Source: Pyrinomonadaceae bacterium
Lineage (GTDB): Bacteria; Acidobacteriota; Blastocatellia; Pyrinomonadales; Pyrinomonadaceae
Assembly (NCBI GenBank): GCA_050250045.1
Contig: JBFWPK010000014.1
Coordinates: 20,841-84,840, forward strand
Length of the DNA stretch: 64,000 nucleotides
Direction: 5' to 3'
Position numbers and translations under genes: made by a program. The notes below the pieces were generated by a model that made no database searches, was not told the DNA's origin, and saw only the letters and a program-made list of their open reading frames with translations. This document shows, piece after piece, positions 12,906-64,000 of the stretch; within the stretch, counting starts at the first letter, position 1, and each line of letters begins with the position of its first letter.

Positions 12906-13136
12906 AGAGTGGTCACCTTCAGGCGCAGAGTGACGACTTTCAGGCCCAGAGTGACGACTCTCAGGCCCAGAGTGACGACTCTCAGGCTCAGAGCGACGAC
13001 TCTCAGGCTCAGAGTGACGACTCTCAGGCTCAGAGTGGTCAGTCTCACGCTCAGAGTGACAACTCTCACGCTCAGAGTGGTCAGTCTCGGGCCCAGAGTG
13101 ACGACTCTCAGGCCCAGAGTGACTGTTCTACCAGGC
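12906..13136. repeat. tandem array, 11 units of exactly 21 bp (consensus AGAGTGACGACTCTCAGGCCC)
   Basis: Counted directly. Most units contain the palindrome AGAGT-GACG-ACTCT plus a 7-bp linker. Both strands read as open heptad-repeat ORFs, which is an artefact. Confidence 0.9.
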
Positions 13137-13562
13137 GCGGGACGCATTGGCGGTGGGCCGTGTTCTGTGTCTCTGTAAAAAGTTGTTGCGCAAGACCGTC
13201 AAACTATGCGAAATTAGACATGGCTCAAGAGCGGGCCGCGGACATGTTGGATATATCCGCCTCCTGTCTGCCGGCGGGCGGCTTCAAAATTGCCGCCTGG
13301 TCGAGATTCCTTCCTTAATAACCGCGCATTTTCGGTTAGACACCGAACTCAATCTCAGATCTAACGGGCTTGATCGGCTTCAGACCCTCCGTTATCGCGC
13401 ACTGCGCTCAAACGAGGTCTGTCGATCGACCGCACTTCGAGGGCCGATTGGCGAACTGGCGTTCCGAGCTTCACAGGCTTCTGGTTCTTTGTCGCTTAAG
13501 CTTCTGTGACCGGGCACGCCTGTTCATTACAAGCTTTAAGAAAGCTAAGGAAAAGAAAACTT

Positions 13563-14270
13563 ATGCAGCCATCTAATAAATGGTTTCCTGTGCCGCTCCA
13601 AGAGCGGGCGGCGTGGTTTCAGAATTTTGCGGCGCAGTTCAATCAGATCGGGACCGGGCTTGGGTTTCTGCCGTCCGTATTGACGCAGGTGCAGAACGAC
13701 AACACGGACTTTCAGTTCTGCGCGGACCAGACGGTCGAGGTCGAGGCGTTCGCCAAGGCGTTTCGGCTGTATCGGCAGACGGTGACCGAGGGCCACGTCG
13801 GCGACCCGGCCCCGCAGTACCCGACAAATCCTTCGGCGGCGCCGCCGAGCCAGGTGCCGACCGGCATCTTTGAGCGGCTGGACGATCTCGTCAAACAGAT
13901 CCGAGTCGCCAACACGTACACGCCCGAGATCGGAGCCCTTCTCGGGATAATCCCGGCACCGCCAGGCAACCTTATCCCGCCCGACGAACTCCAGCCGACG
14001 CTCAAGGCGACGACTCTGCCGGGTTCGGTGGTGCAGGTCAAGTTTGTCCGCGGCAGCACCAACGGCGTGATGATCGAAATGAAGCTCGACAACGCGGTTT
14101 CGTGGTCGGATGCGGGCAAGTTCTACTCGTCGCCCGCCCAACTGACAGTCCCTGAAAACGCCGAGAATCTCCCGCGCTCGGTCCAACTCCGCGCCAGATA
14201 TGTCGAAGGCAACGGCCCCGTCGGCCTTTACTCCGATATAGTCGCCACGGTGACGCTCCCGCAAGCCTAG
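13563..14270 (+). CDS. hypothetical protein
   Basis: ATG at 13563 (MQPSNKWFPVPLQERAAWFQNF...) preceded by AGGAAAAGAAAA. 235 aa, no recognised family. The C-terminal half looks like a beta-sandwich. Confidence 0.6.
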   Translation: MQPSNKWFPVPLQERAAWFQNFAAQFNQIGTGLGFLPSVLTQVQNDNTDFQFCADQTVEVEAFAKAFRLYRQTVTEGHVGDPAPQYPTNPSAAPPSQVPTGIFERLDDLVKQIRVANTYTPEIGALLGIIPAPPGNLIPPDELQPTLKATTLPGSVVQVKFVRGSTNGVMIEMKLDNAVSWSDAGKFYSSPAQLTVPENAENLPRSVQLRARYVEGNGPVGLYSDIVATVTLPQA

Positions 14271-57397: not shown

Positions 57398-57594
57398 GAG
57401 CAACAGGCCTTCCTGAGAATCTGCTTTCGGCGGTTTGATTATACGCGAGACCGGCGGGAAAGAAAGCGGCGGCTCGCGACAACTTTTGCCACCCGCGGCG
57501 GCTTGCCATAGAATGGTGATGGCACTCAAAAAAATGCGGGCCGCGTTCAAACCGCGTGTGCCGGCATTGTCCGCCTGGCCGCGAGACTTCTCAA

Positions 57595-59004
57595 ATGCTT
57601 ACAAAAAACTCCTACCTCGAATATTTGCGCTGTCCGCAAGAGTTTTGGCTCAATTTTCATCACCCTGCGGAAACTGAAAAGGAACTGACGCTTGAGCAGG
57701 AAGATCGCCGCCAGGCCGGATTTGAAGTCTTGCAGCTTGCGAAAAAGATGTCGATCTTCAGCGGATCGAACGGCCTTGTCGAATTTCACCGCATCTTCGC
57801 GACCGAGCACATCAAAACCAGCACCGACATCACCGTAACCGATCGCGCGACCCGCGACCTTTCTATCTATGAGGTGAAGTCCGGTGCGAGCGTTAAGGAC
57901 GAGCACGTTGACGATGTCGCTTTCCAGAAAATGGCGGCTGAAATGCTCGGGCACACGGTCGCAAAAACTTATGTGATCACGGTGGACACCGCCTACACCA
58001 GAAACGGCGAGATCGATCCTGACAGGCTGTTAAAAATCCACGACGTCACCAGCGAGGTTGCGGCAAAGCACGACGAGACGATCAAAAACACAAAAGCGGC
58101 GATCGATCATCTAAAAACTCAGCCCGGGCCCGAGCTAAAACTCCATTGCGCGGAGAAACTCGATTGCGGATTTATCCGATATCATTTTGCCGATATTCCG
58201 GTTTATAACGTAACGCACATTGCGCGCCTAAAGCATGAAAAATGCGCCGACTTGATCGGCCGCGGCATTCTTGACATCCGCGACGTTCCCGCGGATTTTC
58301 CGCTGACCGGCAACCAGCGAAAACAGGTCGAGGCGGCACGAGCGGCCGAGCCCGCAATTGACCGCGCGGGCATCCGAAGTGAATTGGACAGCCTGACATA
58401 TCCGCTCCATTTTCTCGATTACGAAAGTTTCATGCACGCCGTGCCCAAATTCGACGGCACGCGGCCGTATCAGCAGATGGTGTTCCAATATTCGCTCCAC
58501 ACCATCGAACAGCCGGGTGCGGAGCCTGTGCACAGCTTTCACCTTTCAAGAAACGACGGCGCATTCCCGCCGCGCGAGATCGCCGAAAGCCTGCACCAAC
58601 GCCTCGCCGGCCAGCTCGGCACGGTCGTCGTCTGGAACGCATCTTTCGAAAGAAAACGGAACGAGGAAATGGCCGTAATGTTCCCCGATCTCGCCGATCT
58701 GTTCCTGGAGATGAACGACAACCTCTTCGATCTGGAAACGATCTTTTCAAAAGGCCTCTATCTCCACGCGGGTTTCCTCGGCAAGACTTCGATAAAGAAC
58801 GTCCGGCCCGTCCTCTATCCCAAAGCCTCCTACCGCGACCTCGATATTCCCGACGGCACCACCGCCGCCATCCGCTGGTACCAAATGGCCGCCAAACACG
58901 TCAACGCCCCCGAAGCCCAAAACATCTACGACGCCCTCTGCCAATACTGCCACCTCGACACACTCGCCATGGTCGAAATATTCAACGTCCTGCGAGATCT
59001 CTGA
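57595..59004 (+). CDS. DUF2779-domain protein (PD-(D/E)XK plus exonuclease-like)
   Basis: MLTKNSYLEYLRCPQEFWL N-terminus is typical of DUF2779. IYEVKSG nuclease-like motif. C-terminal YCHLDTLAMVEIF. Confidence 0.7.
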   Translation: MLTKNSYLEYLRCPQEFWLNFHHPAETEKELTLEQEDRRQAGFEVLQLAKKMSIFSGSNGLVEFHRIFATEHIKTSTDITVTDRATRDLSIYEVKSGASVKDEHVDDVAFQKMAAEMLGHTVAKTYVITVDTAYTRNGEIDPDRLLKIHDVTSEVAAKHDETIKNTKAAIDHLKTQPGPELKLHCAEKLDCGFIRYHFADIPVYNVTHIARLKHEKCADLIGRGILDIRDVPADFPLTGNQRKQVEAARAAEPAIDRAGIRSELDSLTYPLHFLDYESFMHAVPKFDGTRPYQQMVFQYSLHTIEQPGAEPVHSFHLSRNDGAFPPREIAESLHQRLAGQLGTVVVWNASFERKRNEEMAVMFPDLADLFLEMNDNLFDLETIFSKGLYLHAGFLGKTSIKNVRPVLYPKASYRDLDIPDGTTAAIRWYQMAAKHVNAPEAQNIYDALCQYCHLDTLAMVEIFNVLRDL

Positions 59005-59008
59005 CCCT

Positions 59009-59249
59009 TGCAAAAGCCCGCTTAAGGTGCAAAAGCCCGCTTAAGGTGCAAAAGCCCGCACGAAGTAAGGGCGAAACATTCAACGCCATGCAGAAGCCCG
59101 CACAAGTAAGGGCGAAACATTCAACGCCACGCAGCGGCCCCGCACGAAGTAGGGCGAAACATTCAACGCCATGCAGAAGCCGCGCACGAAGTAAGCGGCG
59201 AAATATTCAACGTTTCGATCAAGACCTTACTACGTGCGGGCCTGAGCAT
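59009..59249. repeat. tandem array of family C half-elements closed by one inverted arm
   Basis: Two truncated units and four full units of TGCA(A/G)AAGCCCGCACGAAGTAAGGGCGAAACATTCAACGCCA (about 43-bp period), then ..CCTTACTACGTGCGGGCCTGAGCA. Confidence 0.85.
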
Positions 59250-59324
59250 CCCGTCTTCACGGGCCTCCGCAAGTCCCGCGCCCGCGACTCCCGAAGCTCA
59301 AAATCCCACCCCAAGCCTTCCCAG

Positions 59325-59555
59325 AACCATTCTCAGTTAACTAAAACTCATTCCCACAATTGTGAAACTCTTCTGAGAACTCAAAAAGTCACCCTCACAA
59401 CTCCAAAACCCGCTCTCACAATTGTGAAAGCCATTCTCAGTCAACCAAAAGTCGTTCTCAGTTAACCAAAAGCCATTCTCACAATTGTCAGAATCATTTT
59501 CAGTTAACCAAGAGTCATTCCTAGAACTTCAAAAGTCCTTCTCACAGGTCAAAAC
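59325..59555. repeat. tandem array, 11 units of exactly 21 bp (AT-rich; TTCTCA core)
   Basis: Example units are GCCATTCTCAGTCAACCAAAA and CCCGCTCTCACAATTGTGAAA. Units alternate between palindromes TCACAATTGTGA and AGTTAACT. Confidence 0.88.
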
Positions 59556-59598
59556 TCGGCACTTTTGTCCAAACACCCCGCTTCTTGCCGTTCGCCAC

Positions 59599-62319
59599 CT
59601 ACTTGAATTCACGAAAGGATTCGAGAATGGCCCCGAAAGTACTTGGGTTGTGTTTTTCAAAGCCTTCTTGATCGATGTATACAAAGTCGTAACTCGTCTC
59701 CGACCGGGCCGCGTTGACATCAGAGCACCACTGCTTCAAGCGGGCCATTTTCTGGGGTAGATCGATCTCTTCGCGGCCCTTTGTCTCTACGATCACGATC
59801 AGGTCGCAGCGGACCTTTACAAGAAAATCAGGATAATAGTTCGAGATATCGCCGTCGGCCTTCACGTAATCCAGTTTGAAATTCACCGCAAAGTAGTTTT
59901 TTGCAAAAGATATTATGTCGTCGCAGCCTTCGAGAAATGTCGCGAATCCAAGCTCGAATCCTTGATCACCAATGATCCGATTAAAAACGCTTTTCTTCGG
60001 GACAAGATACGGCTGGCTTTTTGCGACGAACGGCCTTACATTCCTTAGTTTAATCGAGTCCCGTATCTCAGCCTCGCCTTTGTCTCTGACGGTAAGTTCG
60101 TTGATCCCTTTCTTGAATGCATCCAATGTCGTCTTTGTTGCGGGCATCTCCGAAAGATTGCGCAGTGTGTTCGGATGCTCCAGATCGACGGTTTTTCCGA
60201 AAAGCTGTTCTCCGACAAATGCCTTTACTTTCGGGTACAACGCGTCATATCCACTTACGAGTTTAAGATCTTTCATAACCGTATGTGCAAGGTAGCCGAT
60301 GACACTGCGATAGTCCGCGATCCCGGCTGTGTCGAGCACGACCGTGTGATTGACTTCGCCGGTTGTCATCTTTTTGAAAACGATCTCTCGCTGTTCTTCT
60401 TCTGAGAACTCGTGATATTGAACGATCTCATGGCCTAACCTTGAAACATCGAGTTCCGACAGGTTTTTGTATTCACGATAAACGCGCGGTGAGAGCACAG
60501 GAATTTCGATATCCAATTCGTCGAGGTCCTTTTTCTCGTTTTCCCGGTCAACCTCGACGACTATCGGCTTTCCGCCCTCGCCTCCTTCGCCCATCGGTTT
60601 CCGTTCAAATACAACACCCTCGGCCTGGATCGACTCAACAAAATCCATAAAGGCCTCAGTCCCGATAACGCTAACTTCTTCGTCCGTTTCGCCGGAGTAC
60701 ATTTTCCGAAGTCCGCGGCCAAGCGTTTGTTCGGGCAATATTTTGCTCGTCGCGGCGTATGGCCGAAGCCCGACGATCGTTGTTACGTTCTTAACGTCCC
60801 AGCCTTCTTTAAGCATCATCACCGAAACGATCGCCTTCGCCGGCGAATCCCAACCGTCAATGTTGTTTGCTTGTTCTCGGAGAAGTTTAAGTTCTTCGGC
60901 GCTTCTGCCGCTCGCGGATTCAGATATCTCGCCGTTGCTCTTGGTGTGAATAACGAACGTCGCGTCGCCCGCGAGTTCAGGGCACGTTCCGCGAAGATAT
61001 TCGGCAACGTCGTCGCAGTTCTTCGTATCGTCAGTCATTACGAAAAGTATCGCTTTTTTGCCGGCCTTTTCGTGCTCGTCATACGCTTTTTTCCACTCGA
61101 TGACGCCGAGATCGAGATAATCCGAATACTTCTCGGTATATTTTGCGGTCTGCTTTTCTTGCAGTTTCGCGCGACTCGCGGCGTCGGGCAGGACCGGATG
61201 TTTAACGACATTCTGCGAGATGGCCTCGACAAGAGGATAGTCTGAAATTGTCTGAACAAATATCGCGCCGTTATTGTGTTTGGGCGTCGCGGTCACATCG
61301 ATCTGCAGTGACAGCGCGTCGTCTTTTTGCAGCAGCTTGTTATGAATGTCCTGGATCGATTTGAACCACGCCATCCGCTCGTCGTGAATATGGTGCGCCT
61401 CATCGTTCAGCACCATCAATTCATCGATATCTCGGACGATCATCCCGAGATCGACCTTCGAATCCGTAGTTTTTCCCGTTGGACGAGGGCCGAGAAAATA
61501 GTCCATCGTGTTCTCGTCGTCAAACGACGGCGCCACGTCATCGCCGGAATAAACTCGATGAATGTTTGTCAAAAAAATATTCCCTGTCGGGCGAACGACC
61601 CTCACTTCATCCTGTACGTGAAGCGTAAGCTGAAAATCATCTCGCCAATTTTTGCCGTCATACCCATTGTTCGGCAGAACCGGATCGTGAAAAAAGATAT
61701 CGAGTCCCTTAAAGTCTTTGTAAATACGATCGAGAACGATGATGTTCGGGGCGATGACCAGAAAATTTCGTGACAGCCGCGAATCCGCCTCGTATGTCTT
61801 ATTAAAGAAACTCCACGCCAGAGCAAGGCTCAAAACCTTTGTCTTTCCCGCGCCCGTCGCCATCTTGACGACATAACGCTGCCACGTTTCGGGAAACATC
61901 TGCGCAGTCAGCGGCGCGCTTGGCGCCAACGCCATCAGATCGAATGCGCTTCTTGCCTTCAGAACTTCGTAAAGATAAACGATCGTCTCCAGAGATTCCC
62001 GCTGGGCAAAGTAATACTGAAACTCGAATGCTGGTGCATTTACCTTTTCGATCAGATGCGGTTCGTTGAACCACCAGTTCAATAAACTTCTGCTCGTGTC
62101 CGTCGCTCCCGTATATCCGCTATCGCGAAATTCTTTCACGCGTTTGCGCAATTCCGGAACGAGCGGCGGCATCAATTTCTCCATTGATGTATCGCGCAAG
62201 GTTTCGTCCGCCGGAAACCAGCGGATCGCGGGATCGAGTATCGCGTGCGGCGATTTTGGAAAATCAGGGTGTAATGCCATAGCTGGTATCGGTTCCGTCC
62301 CTGAAAGGGACATATTCAA
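59599..62319 (-). CDS. type III restriction enzyme Res subunit (SF2 helicase plus C-terminal PD-(D/E)XK)
   Basis: Walker A MATGAGKTKV, DEAH-type LNDEAHH, C-terminal YYPDFLV...IVETKG. The true start is possibly MALHPDF at 62280, because the first 13 codons lie in a REP hairpin. Confidence 0.88.
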   Translation of the reverse strand: MNMSLSGTEPIPAMALHPDFPKSPHAILDPAIRWFPADETLRDTSMEKLMPPLVPELRKRVKEFRDSGYTGATDTSRSLLNWWFNEPHLIEKVNAPAFEFQYYFAQRESLETIVYLYEVLKARSAFDLMALAPSAPLTAQMFPETWQRYVVKMATGAGKTKVLSLALAWSFFNKTYEADSRLSRNFLVIAPNIIVLDRIYKDFKGLDIFFHDPVLPNNGYDGKNWRDDFQLTLHVQDEVRVVRPTGNIFLTNIHRVYSGDDVAPSFDDENTMDYFLGPRPTGKTTDSKVDLGMIVRDIDELMVLNDEAHHIHDERMAWFKSIQDIHNKLLQKDDALSLQIDVTATPKHNNGAIFVQTISDYPLVEAISQNVVKHPVLPDAASRAKLQEKQTAKYTEKYSDYLDLGVIEWKKAYDEHEKAGKKAILFVMTDDTKNCDDVAEYLRGTCPELAGDATFVIHTKSNGEISESASGRSAEELKLLREQANNIDGWDSPAKAIVSVMMLKEGWDVKNVTTIVGLRPYAATSKILPEQTLGRGLRKMYSGETDEEVSVIGTEAFMDFVESIQAEGVVFERKPMGEGGEGGKPIVVEVDRENEKKDLDELDIEIPVLSPRVYREYKNLSELDVSRLGHEIVQYHEFSEEEQREIVFKKMTTGEVNHTVVLDTAGIADYRSVIGYLAHTVMKDLKLVSGYDALYPKVKAFVGEQLFGKTVDLEHPNTLRNLSEMPATKTTLDAFKKGINELTVRDKGEAEIRDSIKLRNVRPFVAKSQPYLVPKKSVFNRIIGDQGFELGFATFLEGCDDIISFAKNYFAVNFKLDYVKADGDISNYYPDFLVKVRCDLIVIVETKGREEIDLPQKMARLKQWCSDVNAARSETSYDFVYIDQEGFEKHNPSTFGAILESFREFK

Positions 62320-62382: not shown

Positions 62383-62835
62383 TTAATCCCAAATATATTT
62401 CTCGTCAAATTCGATCTCGTACTTCTTAAAGAAAACTCGCATTTCGTCCTCAAACAATTTTTTTCGATGGTGCTCCAATTGATCCTCGATATATCGTTCG
62501 ACGTCTCGAACTTGCGTGTGCCCAACTGTGAATGCTGCATAACCGTCCTGCCATGCAAATTTTGTCAACATTCCACCGCCAGTTTTCATCCACTTTGAAG
62601 AATCCCGCTTGATGGCACCGACCAGATCCGGGATCAGGAAATTCTTGCCGACGGAGATCAAAAGATGAATATGATTAGCCGTGCCTCCTGCTTTGAGCAA
62701 TCTGCCTCCAAAGTTGCGGACGATACCGCCGATATAGGCAAACAACTCCGCCTGTTTCTCGGTAGGGATCAGATCAACACGATTCTTCGTTGAGAACACG
62801 ATGTGAAAATACGCGTTGAATATCGTTTGGGCCAT
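62383..62835 (-). mobile_element. IS200/IS605-family Y1 (HUH) transposase, RAYT-like
   Basis: MAQTIFNAYFHIVFSTKNR. HUH motif ANHIHLL. Catalytic Tyr context VERYIEDQ. ATG at 62835. Flanked by hairpin repeats. Confidence 0.85.
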
Positions 62836-62848
62836 CGGTTTTGTGATT

Positions 62849-63151
62849 GTCCCTGAAAGGGAGTCATTCAATAGCGTCGGGTCCAACCCGACGCTAACCA
62901 ATCATAACGCCCGCACGTCCCTGAAGGGGACGAACGGAACGGCGGTGTTATTCGTCCCTTACAGGGACGCGTCTCTCTGTTCCGTCGTGTCGTCGGGATG
63001 CTCCCGACGTTTAAAGATCATAACTCCCGCACGTCCCTGAAGGGGACGAACGGAAACGCCGTGTCGTGTGTCCCTTACAGGGACGCGTCTCTCTGTTGCA
63101 TCGTGTCGTCGGGATGCTCCCGACGCTATTAACTTTGTCCCCGTTGGGGAC
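62849..63151. repeat. REP-like hairpin array upstream of the Y1 transposase gene, including two 116-bp tandem units
   Basis: GTCCCTGAAAGGGAG + GTCGGGTCCAACCCGAC repeats the left flank in direct orientation. Units at 62910-63009 and 63026-63125 each hold GTCCCTGAAGGGGAC, GTCCCTTACAGGGAC and GTCGGGATGCTCCCGAC. GTCCCCGTTGGGGAC is at 63137-63151. Confidence 0.88.
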
Positions 63152-63157
63152 GATGTC

Positions 63158-64000
63158 TCAAACACTCACCTCAACGATCGTCATCGTATCGTTGCCAAAA
63201 ATATCGACGACCTTTACGGCGATCTTCCTGCGGCCGGGTTCGCATTCATGGAACACCGATTTCAATTCGATCGAACGGTCGCGTTTTGTGCGGAATGACT
63301 GCCATTCATTCTCAAATATATAATCGCCCGTCCAGACATCTTCATATTCGACCAGTGCCTGTTGATCCGCTTCCATACCCGGCAGTTTGTCGTCGGAGAT
63401 CAAAGGCTTTCGAATCGTTTCTTTTTTGCTTTCGTAATTAAAATCCACCGACCAATAATCAACCCAATCGGTCCATTTTTCGGTCAGAACCTCGCGGGTA
63501 ACTATTCCGTCCTTGTCTTTTGAGACCTTTATTATCTTTCCGGCTTCGACGACGATCTTCGATGCTTTATTTTTCAGCGACTGCTCGGCGTTTGCGACCG
63601 AATCCTGTGAATAAAAGACCGAAAAATCCGTGAGCTCTATCGCGACGGTTCTGCCCTTTATATGCGGCCTTACTTCTATATAAGAAACGTCGTGGAAAAC
63701 GACCTGATTCTTTTCGACAGCGCGTTTGTCGAATACTTCGGCGGGAATGTATTTTAACGAAAGGTCTATGCCAAGCGCCGCAGGGTCGATAACGGTAACC
63801 TCTTCTTTTTCATCCTTGTCCGTTTTTCGTTTACGTCGAATGGACGGGACAAGGCCCATTTCGAATTCAAAGCCGAGAATATCGATGCGGGTGATATGTT
63901 TTTGGACGCACTCACCCAGCACCTCTTCGACAAAGAGCCTCGATACCGGCAAATTGACCGGGCCGATCGCGACGAGGCGGCCGGCCTTTTTTCCCTGGAA
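63158..64000 (-). CDS. C-terminal part of a DNA methyltransferase (type III Mod-like), continues past window end
   Basis: The frame is open to position 64000 (FQGKKAGRLVAIGPVNLPVS...). The C-terminal tail ...VVDIFGNDTMTIVEVSV resembles what I recall of N6/N4 methylases paired with Res helicases. Catalytic motifs are outside the window. Confidence 0.6.
   Translation of the reverse strand, partial: FQGKKAGRLVAIGPVNLPVSRLFVEEVLGECVQKHITRIDILGFEFEMGLVPSIRRKRKTDKDEKEEVTVIDPAALGIDLSLKYIPAEVFDKRAVEKNQVVFHDVSYIEVRPHIKGRTVAIELTDFSVFYSQDSVANAEQSLKNKASKIVVEAGKIIKVSKDKDGIVTREVLTEKWTDWVDYWSVDFNYESKKETIRKPLISDDKLPGMEADQQALVEYEDVWTGDYIFENEWQSFRTKRDRSIELKSVFHECEPGRRKIAVKVVDIFGNDTMTIVEVSV

Follow-up and report, generated by a model that had tools for sequence, protein, structure and literature searches.

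What does an array of eleven 21-bp units do between the 3' ends of two converging genes? The question is raised by a locus near the end of the 64,000-nucleotide stretch of Pyrinomonadaceae DNA analysed here (the window), where a DUF2779 gene and the type III restriction gene res point towards each other across the repeats, a convergent setting that the original prediction had described correctly. The immediate neighbourhood comprises ComM-like, GDSL, DUF2779, res, RAYT and mod genes, and the local order runs from DUF2779 through a REP block, the array, res, RAYT and mod to a promoter and an orphan gene just outside the window (Table 1). The array is apparently stranded between convergent 3' ends because the restriction-modification (R-M) cassette separates it from that promoter. 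The sections of the argument that follow concern the repeats themselves, their relatives in the genus, the gene that recurs beside them, and the cassettes that come to lie in between.

Table 1 Features of the array locus and of the first 21-bp array, in window coordinates
Feature	Coordinates	Strand	Remarks
First 21-bp array of the window, unit TCAGGCTCAGAGTGACGACTC	12906..13136		About 400 bp upstream of an orphan-gene paralogue
Paralogue of the orphan 229-aa family	13548..14234	+	hhalign probability 98.8%, E 1.3e-16, 30% identity
DUF2779 protein, Cas4-like N-terminal nuclease region	57556..59004	+	With the REP block and the array, the only ~2 kb shared with G093
REP-like hairpin repeat, tandem and inverted copies	59009..59250		77 matches genome-wide; family distinct from the array
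Eleven-unit non-coding array, period ~21 bp	59325..59555	+	Family core AAAnTCATTCY on the + strand; variable half alternates CAGTTAAC / CACAATTGTG / GAGAAC
Array trailer AAACTCGGCACTTTTGTCCAAAC	59556..59580	+	Common to the G093 and G017 arrays; G093 homology stops here
Type III restriction subunit res (ResIII/REase_III)	59599..62319	-	First gene of the low-GC cassette
IS200/RAYT-type Y1 transposase	62383..62901	-	Between res and mod; 116-bp repeats at 62901-63125
Type III mod, 3' part	63158..64000	-	Continues past the window to window coordinate 65569; IDPPF methyltransferase motif
Orphan-gene promoter (~65663) and gene (65833-66519)	beyond window	+	Gene = C14:86673-87359

Direct reading of the sequence resolves the array into eleven rows of 21 bp, and the predicted periodicity is real. 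The array matches itself at 0.51 at a lag of 21, 0.49 at a lag of 42 and 0.51 at a lag of 63, whereas in shuffled controls (n = 2000) the best self-match over all lags averaged 0.35 and reached at most 0.42. Formal repeat detection with TRF supports the same conclusion for the better-kept part only, with a period of 21 at 59427-59520 and a period of 63 at 59399-59546. The phase had been described as strictly 21 bp, and nearly all of the ten core-to-core steps are indeed of that length; the exception, a slip of 1 bp, falls between the second and third units, the steps reading 21, 20 and then eight times 21. The embedded palindromes are also present, the perfect TCACAATTGTGA at 59416-59427 rather than at 59414-59425 where it had been placed, and the GTTAAC/AGTTAACT sites (59335, 59460 and 59503) and the degenerate CAATTG palindromes (~59355 and ~59479) at the positions predicted. 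The + strand is strongly G-poor, with a GC skew of -0.45. Within its own genome the array is single-copy, and among its relatives it is the most heterogeneous in-register member, with a mean pairwise unit identity of 0.48 compared with 0.67 in genome G093.

Two physical or regulatory readings of the array were tried and set aside. Intrinsic curvature fails as a general property of such arrays: in a wedge model that uses the parameters of Bolshoy et al. 1991 and is to be read as qualitative only, the window copy lies at background (end-to-end/contour ratio 0.93 for the array and 0.93 for background), and the family is mixed, some members being strongly curved and others not. A sigma-54 promoter within the trailer, GGCACTTTTG, was rejected by eye, its spacing misfitting the -24/-12 consensus.

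Relatives of the array were sought by blastn with a 291-bp query, a search that short arrays would escape; of the 191 genomes in the genus, 16 contain such arrays, with between one and three loci apiece. All keep the 21-bp period; most comprise 10-12 units, several 13-18 and one about 25, and the clustering near 10-12 is in part an artefact because the query misses short arrays. Across 15 independent arrays the unit consensus reads AAAnTCATTCT-n-AGA, with the remainder of the unit free. Conservation is seen at positions 2-4 and 6-12, where 12-15 of the 15 arrays agree and positions 4, 9 and 10 are invariant, and positions 17-21 are variable, with agreement in 7-10 arrays. The family core, AAAnTCATTCY, is weaker in the eroded window copy.

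Orthologous arrays could be compared in two cases, and in both the array has held its position in the genome as well as its number of units. Those of G187 and G094 are 78% identical with zero gain or loss of units, in surroundings that match at 82-84% in the non-coding DNA next to the array and at 81-94% in the outer flanks. The window array and that of G093, with 11 and 12 units, respectively, are 72% identical, beside neighbouring coding DNA that is similar at 74%. Other family members occupy unrelated places. Three arrays of G193 have only a 60-90-bp leader and the array in common, and the same 28-bp trailer accompanies an array of G017 that sits elsewhere, flanked by genes for an ABC transporter and a kinase-like protein which in the window genome enclose two other genes instead. 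The shared leaders and the shared trailer imply that arrays have been copied between sites. Roughly half of the family arrays lie at loci that lack the orphan gene described below, among them wzx/capD polysaccharide, MacB/ABC, UvrC and ScpA loci. In the window genome as a whole, 21 bp is the commonest period found by TRF among arrays with at least 5 copies and a period of at least 10 bp; five further arrays of this period, with 5-11 units, lie at C2:73757, C4:118693, C6:130727, C10:136664 and C14:33759, all with different unit sequences and with their coding status judged from stop-to-stop frames only.

When the genes flanking family arrays were compared all against all, one recurrent product stood out, an orphan protein of about 229 aa. 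Its gene is present in 47 of the 191 genomes. In three genomes (G165, G101 and G193) it follows a family array at a distance of 300-950 bp with nothing between. Of 30 orphan loci that were fetched, 12 are preceded at 300-1300 bp by a 21-bp array with 6-11 units, and a thirteenth has an array of 19-22 bp. The unit sequences of these upstream arrays differ, although most contain (G/A)AATGA. A strong promoter (TTGAyw-N18-TATAAT) is conserved 107-156 bp ahead of the start codon at about 14 orphan loci, and in intact modules 290-770 bp separate the end of the array from the -35 hexamer. The gene occurs in 11 of 17 array-bearing genomes compared with 36 of 174 others, a comparison that ignores phylogeny, and the remaining 6 of the 17 are without a homologue at E 1e-30. 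As an independent test, the 20 kb upstream of 7 further orphan loci without a nearby array were searched; arrays were found in two (at 5.9 kb and 17 kb) and none in the other five, the chance expectation for 20 kb being roughly 3%, as calculated from about six such arrays in 4.3 Mb.

The window genome carries two close copies of the orphan gene, at C2:166622-167308 and C14:86673-87359. The C14 copy starts 6.3 kb downstream of the array and 260 bp past the start of mod, on the strand that matches the orientation of the array core, and only res, RAYT and mod intervene. Ahead of both copies stands a strong promoter in which TTGATT and TATAAT are 18 bp apart, with TGCT at the end of the spacer, and a leader of about 140 nt follows. 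They form an 871-bp duplication that is 95% identical and covers exactly promoter, leader and gene. Given this recent duplication, the C14 copy is possibly a late arrival and not necessarily the original partner of the array. It is called from Met-11 (219 aa); a longer version of the frame meets TAG at codon 6, which therefore need not be a defect. The other 21-bp array of the window has the same company, both arrays being associated with genes of this one orphan protein family (Table 1). A link between the two arrays had been proposed on the basis of period, unit count and a shared TCTCAG core. The link holds, but it runs through the orphan-family genes rather than through those shared letters, and a tie to one gene family explains the common period and unit number better than TCTCAG does.

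The orphan family has more than 200 homologues, mostly of 219-230 aa; every named one is annotated as hypothetical, and the named source organisms are Pyrinomonadaceae. An AlphaFold model (pLDDT 86) pairs a helical hairpin at the N-terminus with an FN3-like sandwich at the C-terminus. Searches returned generic FN3 matches only, with no PADLOC, PHROGs or Pfam match, and neither the structure model nor the database searches gave any mark of a DNA-binding protein.

The DNA that separates the array from the orphan gene has the marks of an insertion. The segment at 59.2-65.6 kb behaves like an inserted cassette: GC is 0.47-0.51 in the res-RAYT-mod segment compared with 0.55-0.59 in the flanks on either side, and synteny is lost, that with G196 running through ComM and GDSL and ending at DUF2779. 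An empty site was sought in the nearest relatives, which are too diverged for the comparison, the synteny with G196 extending only to the GDSL gene. G093 shares just DUF2779, the REP block and the array (about 2 kb at 74% identity), and both outer flanks differ. The homology with G093 stops about 20 bp short of the res stop codon, which makes the array trailer the left junction of the R-M cassette. In G093 the orthologous array is followed by a type I hsdM gene; as the array is thus conserved beside a different R-M system, it belongs to the resident side of the junction. The shared DUF2779 gene was itself considered as a partner nuclease of the array and rejected. It is present in 85 of the 191 genomes and in 13 of 17 array genomes, adjoins an array only in the window genome (G000) and G093, and has no array beside it at 15 other DUF2779 loci.

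Other genomes have different genes in the same interval. G183 shows the same split layout, with the array followed by GmrSD, an MmeI-like fragment, an Eco57I-type methylase and a T5orf172 protein, and the orphan gene 7 kb on. The layout recurs in G065, where an HTH protein and an N6 methylase occupy the interval between array and orphan gene. Where an orphan locus has no nearby array, the promoter is immediately preceded by defence-type genes (DUF3800, AAA_21/AAA_15, NOV_C, a reverse transcriptase and an SRA domain), and the C2 orphan copy of the window genome has a C-terminal remnant of hsdR in that position.

What is observed, then, is a 21-bp array upstream of an orphan gene with a strong promoter. 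We favour, tentatively and with a probability of roughly 0.45, the explanation that the array is the distal upstream element of this orphan-gene module and likely serves as a phased platform for protein docking. The recurrent module opens with a 21-bp array, which a spacer of a few hundred bp separates from a strong promoter of the sigma-70 type (TTGAyw-N18-TATAAT); a leader of about 130 nt then precedes the orphan 229-aa gene. In the window genome a 6-kb type III R-M cassette (res, RAYT, mod) lies between array and promoter. Each core of about 11 bp may be docked by one copy of a sequence-specific DNA-binding protein. Lying two helical turns apart, the core sites would all be presented on the same face of the helix, and about eleven of them could build a higher-order nucleoprotein platform. 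Such a platform might modulate or insulate the neighbouring promoter and mark one border of a site at which defence cassettes accumulate. That the window copy is the most eroded of the family is expected if the insertion relaxed constraint on the array. The docking idea has been put forward for a whole class of repeats by Subirana and Messeguer (PMC8161180), and we count this proposal in its favour. The protein-binding or nucleoid-structuring array of the original prediction thereby stays the leading reading, with the units as candidate docking sites only.

Several observations count against the docking explanation. The 290-770 bp between array and -35 hexamer is far for a classical activator site. 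The orientation of the arrays is unfixed, about half of the family arrays and 6 of the 17 array-bearing genomes are without the orphan gene, the C14 gene is a recent duplicate, five of the seven test loci have no array within 20 kb and no curvature is predicted for the window copy.

The arrays might instead have no cellular role. They could be a minisatellite, neutral or selfish, whose 21-bp unit spreads from one intergenic site to another by copying and stays recognisable through concerted evolution, and their proximity to variable cassettes would merely show where insertions are tolerated. Much of the fine structure suits this: higher-order sub-repeats of 42 and 63 bp, typical of satellite growth, occur within the arrays, array edges grade into degenerate units, the window copy is eroded, the genomic contexts are diverse, and the leaders shared in G193 and the trailer shared with G017 point to copy-and-paste. 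The metagenomes point the same way. A scan for three exact cores at 21-bp spacing returned 25 contigs with a GC of 0.21-0.66, four of the arrays lying inside long ORFs, and in arrays with the same 10-mer the core was conserved at 0.84 compared with 0.85 for the rest of the unit. A cross-phylum meaning of the AAAGTCATTC core is not supported, as the core of the metagenome arrays outside long ORFs is no better conserved than the rest; viral-contig controls, at 1 against 0 and 0, were uninformative, and two exact cores at 21-bp spacing were found in none of 401 Acidobacteriota genomes. Within the genus, however, it is specifically the core positions that are conserved from array to array, the number of units clusters around 10-12 and stays stable from one orthologue to the next, and arrays recur upstream of one gene family even where their units are unrelated. 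We regard an idle minisatellite as unlikely, though well short of far-fetched.

A more specific proposal is that defence cassettes have a dedicated exchange site here, bounded on one side by the array and on the other by the promoter of the orphan gene, with both borders fixed. Incoming R-M and other defence genes would be recruited, captured, retained or silenced by the array or by a protein polymerising along it. Consistent with this, three genomes (G000, G183 and G065) hold different defence cassettes between array and orphan gene, G093 has its type I system after the orthologous array, most array-less loci have defence genes directly upstream of the orphan promoter, and the cassette junction falls within about 20 bp of the array trailer. 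On the other hand, no recombinase or integrase is linked to the site, the cassettes are found in both orientations, five of the seven test loci have no array within 20 kb and many arrays are not near defence genes. Both the two-border site and the handling of incoming genes by the array or its protein seem to us quite improbable as the function of the locus.

Could the array act as RNA, as a repeat-rich small RNA, a sponge RNA or part of a leader transcript? Both of its strands fold better than shuffled sequences (z = -4.8 for the + strand and -8.2 for the - strand), and over the family promoter-like sites lie more often just downstream of arrays (7 of 21) than upstream (2 of 21). Subirana and Messeguer, who raise the RNA idea, report that the 52-nt repeat class is transcribed in Bacillus coagulans. 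The fold scores, however, arise because palindromic units pair with one another, and the mirror order of units in the window array is not preserved in the G093 orthologue. A scan of the window array and its immediate flanks found no promoter-like or terminator-like site, and Rfam had no match across 57-64 kb of the window. Orientation relative to the neighbouring genes also varies: roughly 11 arrays are co-oriented and 6 convergent, which is not significant, and the array at the wzx locus is inverted in G193 relative to G187 and G094. An orientation that is unfixed is a mild argument for a role at the level of DNA over one at the level of RNA, and we consider an RNA function very unlikely.

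The original prediction had also offered a remnant iteron or centromere region, left by an integrated element that carried the type III R-M system; a plasmid as the carrier falls under the same reading. The array does resemble iterons and sopC-type centromeres in being made of helically phased direct repeats within the 17-22 bp range, some of which contain palindromes, and the R-M segment is low in GC. The remainder of the evidence is contrary to this idea. Blastn found no homologous array in 72,556 plasmid or 50,697 phage records, neither rep nor par genes lie near the array, and no Rep/Par neighbours were found at the loci of other family arrays that were examined. Family members sit in chromosomal housekeeping contexts, and the array does not travel with the R-M genes, being conserved in G093 beside a different system. 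The idea has to be given up as extremely unlikely. A heptad-repeat protein encoded by the array can be dismissed as scarcely credible, for although 13 of 21 family arrays leave frame +0 (K-S-H-S-x-x-x) open and a 132-codon frame spans that of G093, the window array has stops in all six frames (2-13 each) and is not a translated repeat protein, the 1-bp slip breaks the frame, no start signal was found and ORFs overlapping the array have no Pfam family match.

The distal-element reading can be set beside known systems. In type III toxin-antitoxin repeat RNAs (ToxI-like), tandem repeats stand right before one conserved toxin gene and share its orientation. Here the genes downstream of the arrays vary by locus, and the next gene after the window array is convergent, not co-oriented. 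REP/BIME elements with their RAYT transposases are likewise short, intergenic, lineage-restricted repeats with palindromic parts, and a true REP-like family and a RAYT gene are present within 4 kb of the array. The array nevertheless consists of head-to-tail direct repeats at one to three loci per genome, whereas REP elements are hairpins in tens to hundreds of dispersed copies, and both the neighbouring REP family and the 116-bp repeats flanking RAYT have other sequences than the array.

Protein-binding repeats offer further parallels. LytTR-type operators (those of AgrA, ComE and AlgR) are direct repeats of about 9-10 bp separated by 12 bp, so that the sites recur every 21 bp on the same helical face; they comprise two or three repeats and lie directly upstream of the -35 hexamer. 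The 21-bp geometry of the array fits this arrangement. The array differs in having about eleven units, in its distance from the promoter in intact modules, and in that no promoter-like site lies beside the window copy. Plasmid iterons (R6K, pPS10, RK2, P1) and repeat centromeres (sopC of F, parC of R1) are built from helically phased direct repeats, about 17-22 bp long (43 bp in sopC), each of which binds one protein, and together they form a higher-order complex. The window array falls into the same size range and the same helical phase, a likeness of layout. It differs from them in the missing Rep/Par gene and plasmid match, in belonging to a chromosomal family with several loci per genome in unrelated contexts, and in its roughly eleven units, which exceed most iteron sets.

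The nearest counterpart is the class of repeats described by Subirana and Messeguer (PMC8161180), which are non-coding tandem repeats with a constant length of 20-21 nt or 52 nt, a variable sequence and a short conserved motif. These authors assign no function and suggest either that a protein polymerises along the DNA or that small RNAs are involved; the paper also cites their report on constant-length repeats in J Bacteriol 2020 (doi 10.1128/JB.00229-20). The organisms covered are Bacillus, Paenibacillus and other groups, and the word 'Acidobacteria' is absent from the text of PMC8161180. On sequence features, the window array fits the 20-21-nt class. It has at least 4 tandem units (eleven, spaced by 21 bp nine times and by 20 bp once), it is non-coding and intergenic between DUF2779 and res, its unit length is about two helical turns, several arrays of the same length and different sequence occur in one genome, and a short sequence, AAAnTCATTCY, is conserved across 15 independent arrays. 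There are also differences. PMC8161180 reports no link to a particular gene, whereas the arrays here are few per genome, recur upstream of one orphan family and adjoin defence cassettes, and we found no description in print of such a gene-module and defence-cassette context for 21-bp arrays.

By these features the array is a new member of a published and unexplained repeat class. Constant-length bacterial repeats of 20-21 nt have been catalogued with no known function, partner or genetic context, and the present locus makes the question testable. It ties one constant-length repeat family to an orphan gene module, to a conserved core that could be used as bait and to a variable site for defence cassettes. 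The module may also flag a defence-island hot spot in a poorly studied soil phylum, and the exchange-site explanation, if true, would provide a physiological role and a genetic handle for the 21-nt repeat class.

Members of the 21-bp repeat family appear to be copied from site to site together with a short flank in one related genome of the genus (G193), where three arrays on different contigs (L041, L056 and L057; contigs C12, C13 and C5) have a common upstream leader of 60-90 bp and no flank in common beyond leader and array. Three species (L038 in G187, L039 in G094 and L041 in G193) have a family array upstream of wzx, the flippase gene of a polysaccharide locus; in one of them the array is inverted. 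The window genome may itself carry a second, diverged member on contig C4, as judged from the similarity of its unit, CTCTTGGGAATTGCCGCAAAA, to the unit GAGAATTGCCGAAATGATTCT of a family array in the related genome G107. In G093, another relative, one frame is open throughout the array orthologous to that of the window, and its predicted product is a heptad peptide rich in His, Ser and Cys (…SHSHNCESHSHNFK…); this open frame is not preserved in the window array.

The 10-mer AAAGTCATTC was also found in about 19 seemingly non-coding 21-bp arrays of 4-24 units on metagenome contigs (L072-L095) with GC contents of 0.28-0.66. Four further metagenome 21-bp arrays lie within long ORFs, on contigs with a GC content of 0.21-0.31, one of which also occurs as a giant-virus contig. 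Because the 10-mer is no better conserved in the metagenome arrays than the rest of the unit, its occurrence there may be due to chance.

The orphan gene, which encodes a 229-aa protein, is present twice in the window genome, and the duplication comprises exactly its promoter, leader and coding sequence and nothing more. The copy on contig C2 directly follows the remaining C-terminal part of a type I hsdR gene. The unit of promoter and gene may itself be mobile. Within the type III cassette, an IS200/RAYT-type transposase gene is adjoined by two hairpin-rich repeats. To the left of the window array lies a block of REP-like hairpins, a family with 77 matches genome-wide, often paired in inverted orientation; a tandem block of the same kind occupies the same place in G093.

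Repeats, mobile-type genes and duplicated units in the window genome
Feature	Location	Details
Array, period about 20-21 bp	C4:118693-118851	unit CTCTTGGGAATTGCCGCAAAA
Duplicated orphan unit, 871 bp	C2:166441-167311 and C14:86493-87362 (window 65653-66522, outside the window)	95% identity
REP-like hairpin copies	window 59009-59250	hairpin GCCCGCACGAAGTAAGGGC; tandem copies with periods of 19 bp and 42 bp, plus inverted copies
IS200/RAYT-type Y1 transposase gene with adjoining repeats	window 62383-63125	between type III res and mod
Two 116-bp repeats	window 62901-63125	
Example heptanucleotide arrays	C7:34346-34501; C11:99785-99967; C29:30386-30539	
For comparison, open array frame in G093	L044:1414-1812	

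Heptanucleotide tandem repeats are abundant across the whole window genome (C1-C35): 38 arrays have at least four copies, compared with 12 arrays of period 6 and 2 of period 8. In several relatives (L113, L118 and L125), the interval that separates the 21-bp array from the orphan promoter contains comparable 7- and 14-bp arrays. The units in the window genome include AAGTCCC, GAATAGC, ATTTGCG and AAATCCA, inverted pairs close together are common, and these arrays resemble the STRR repeats of cyanobacteria.
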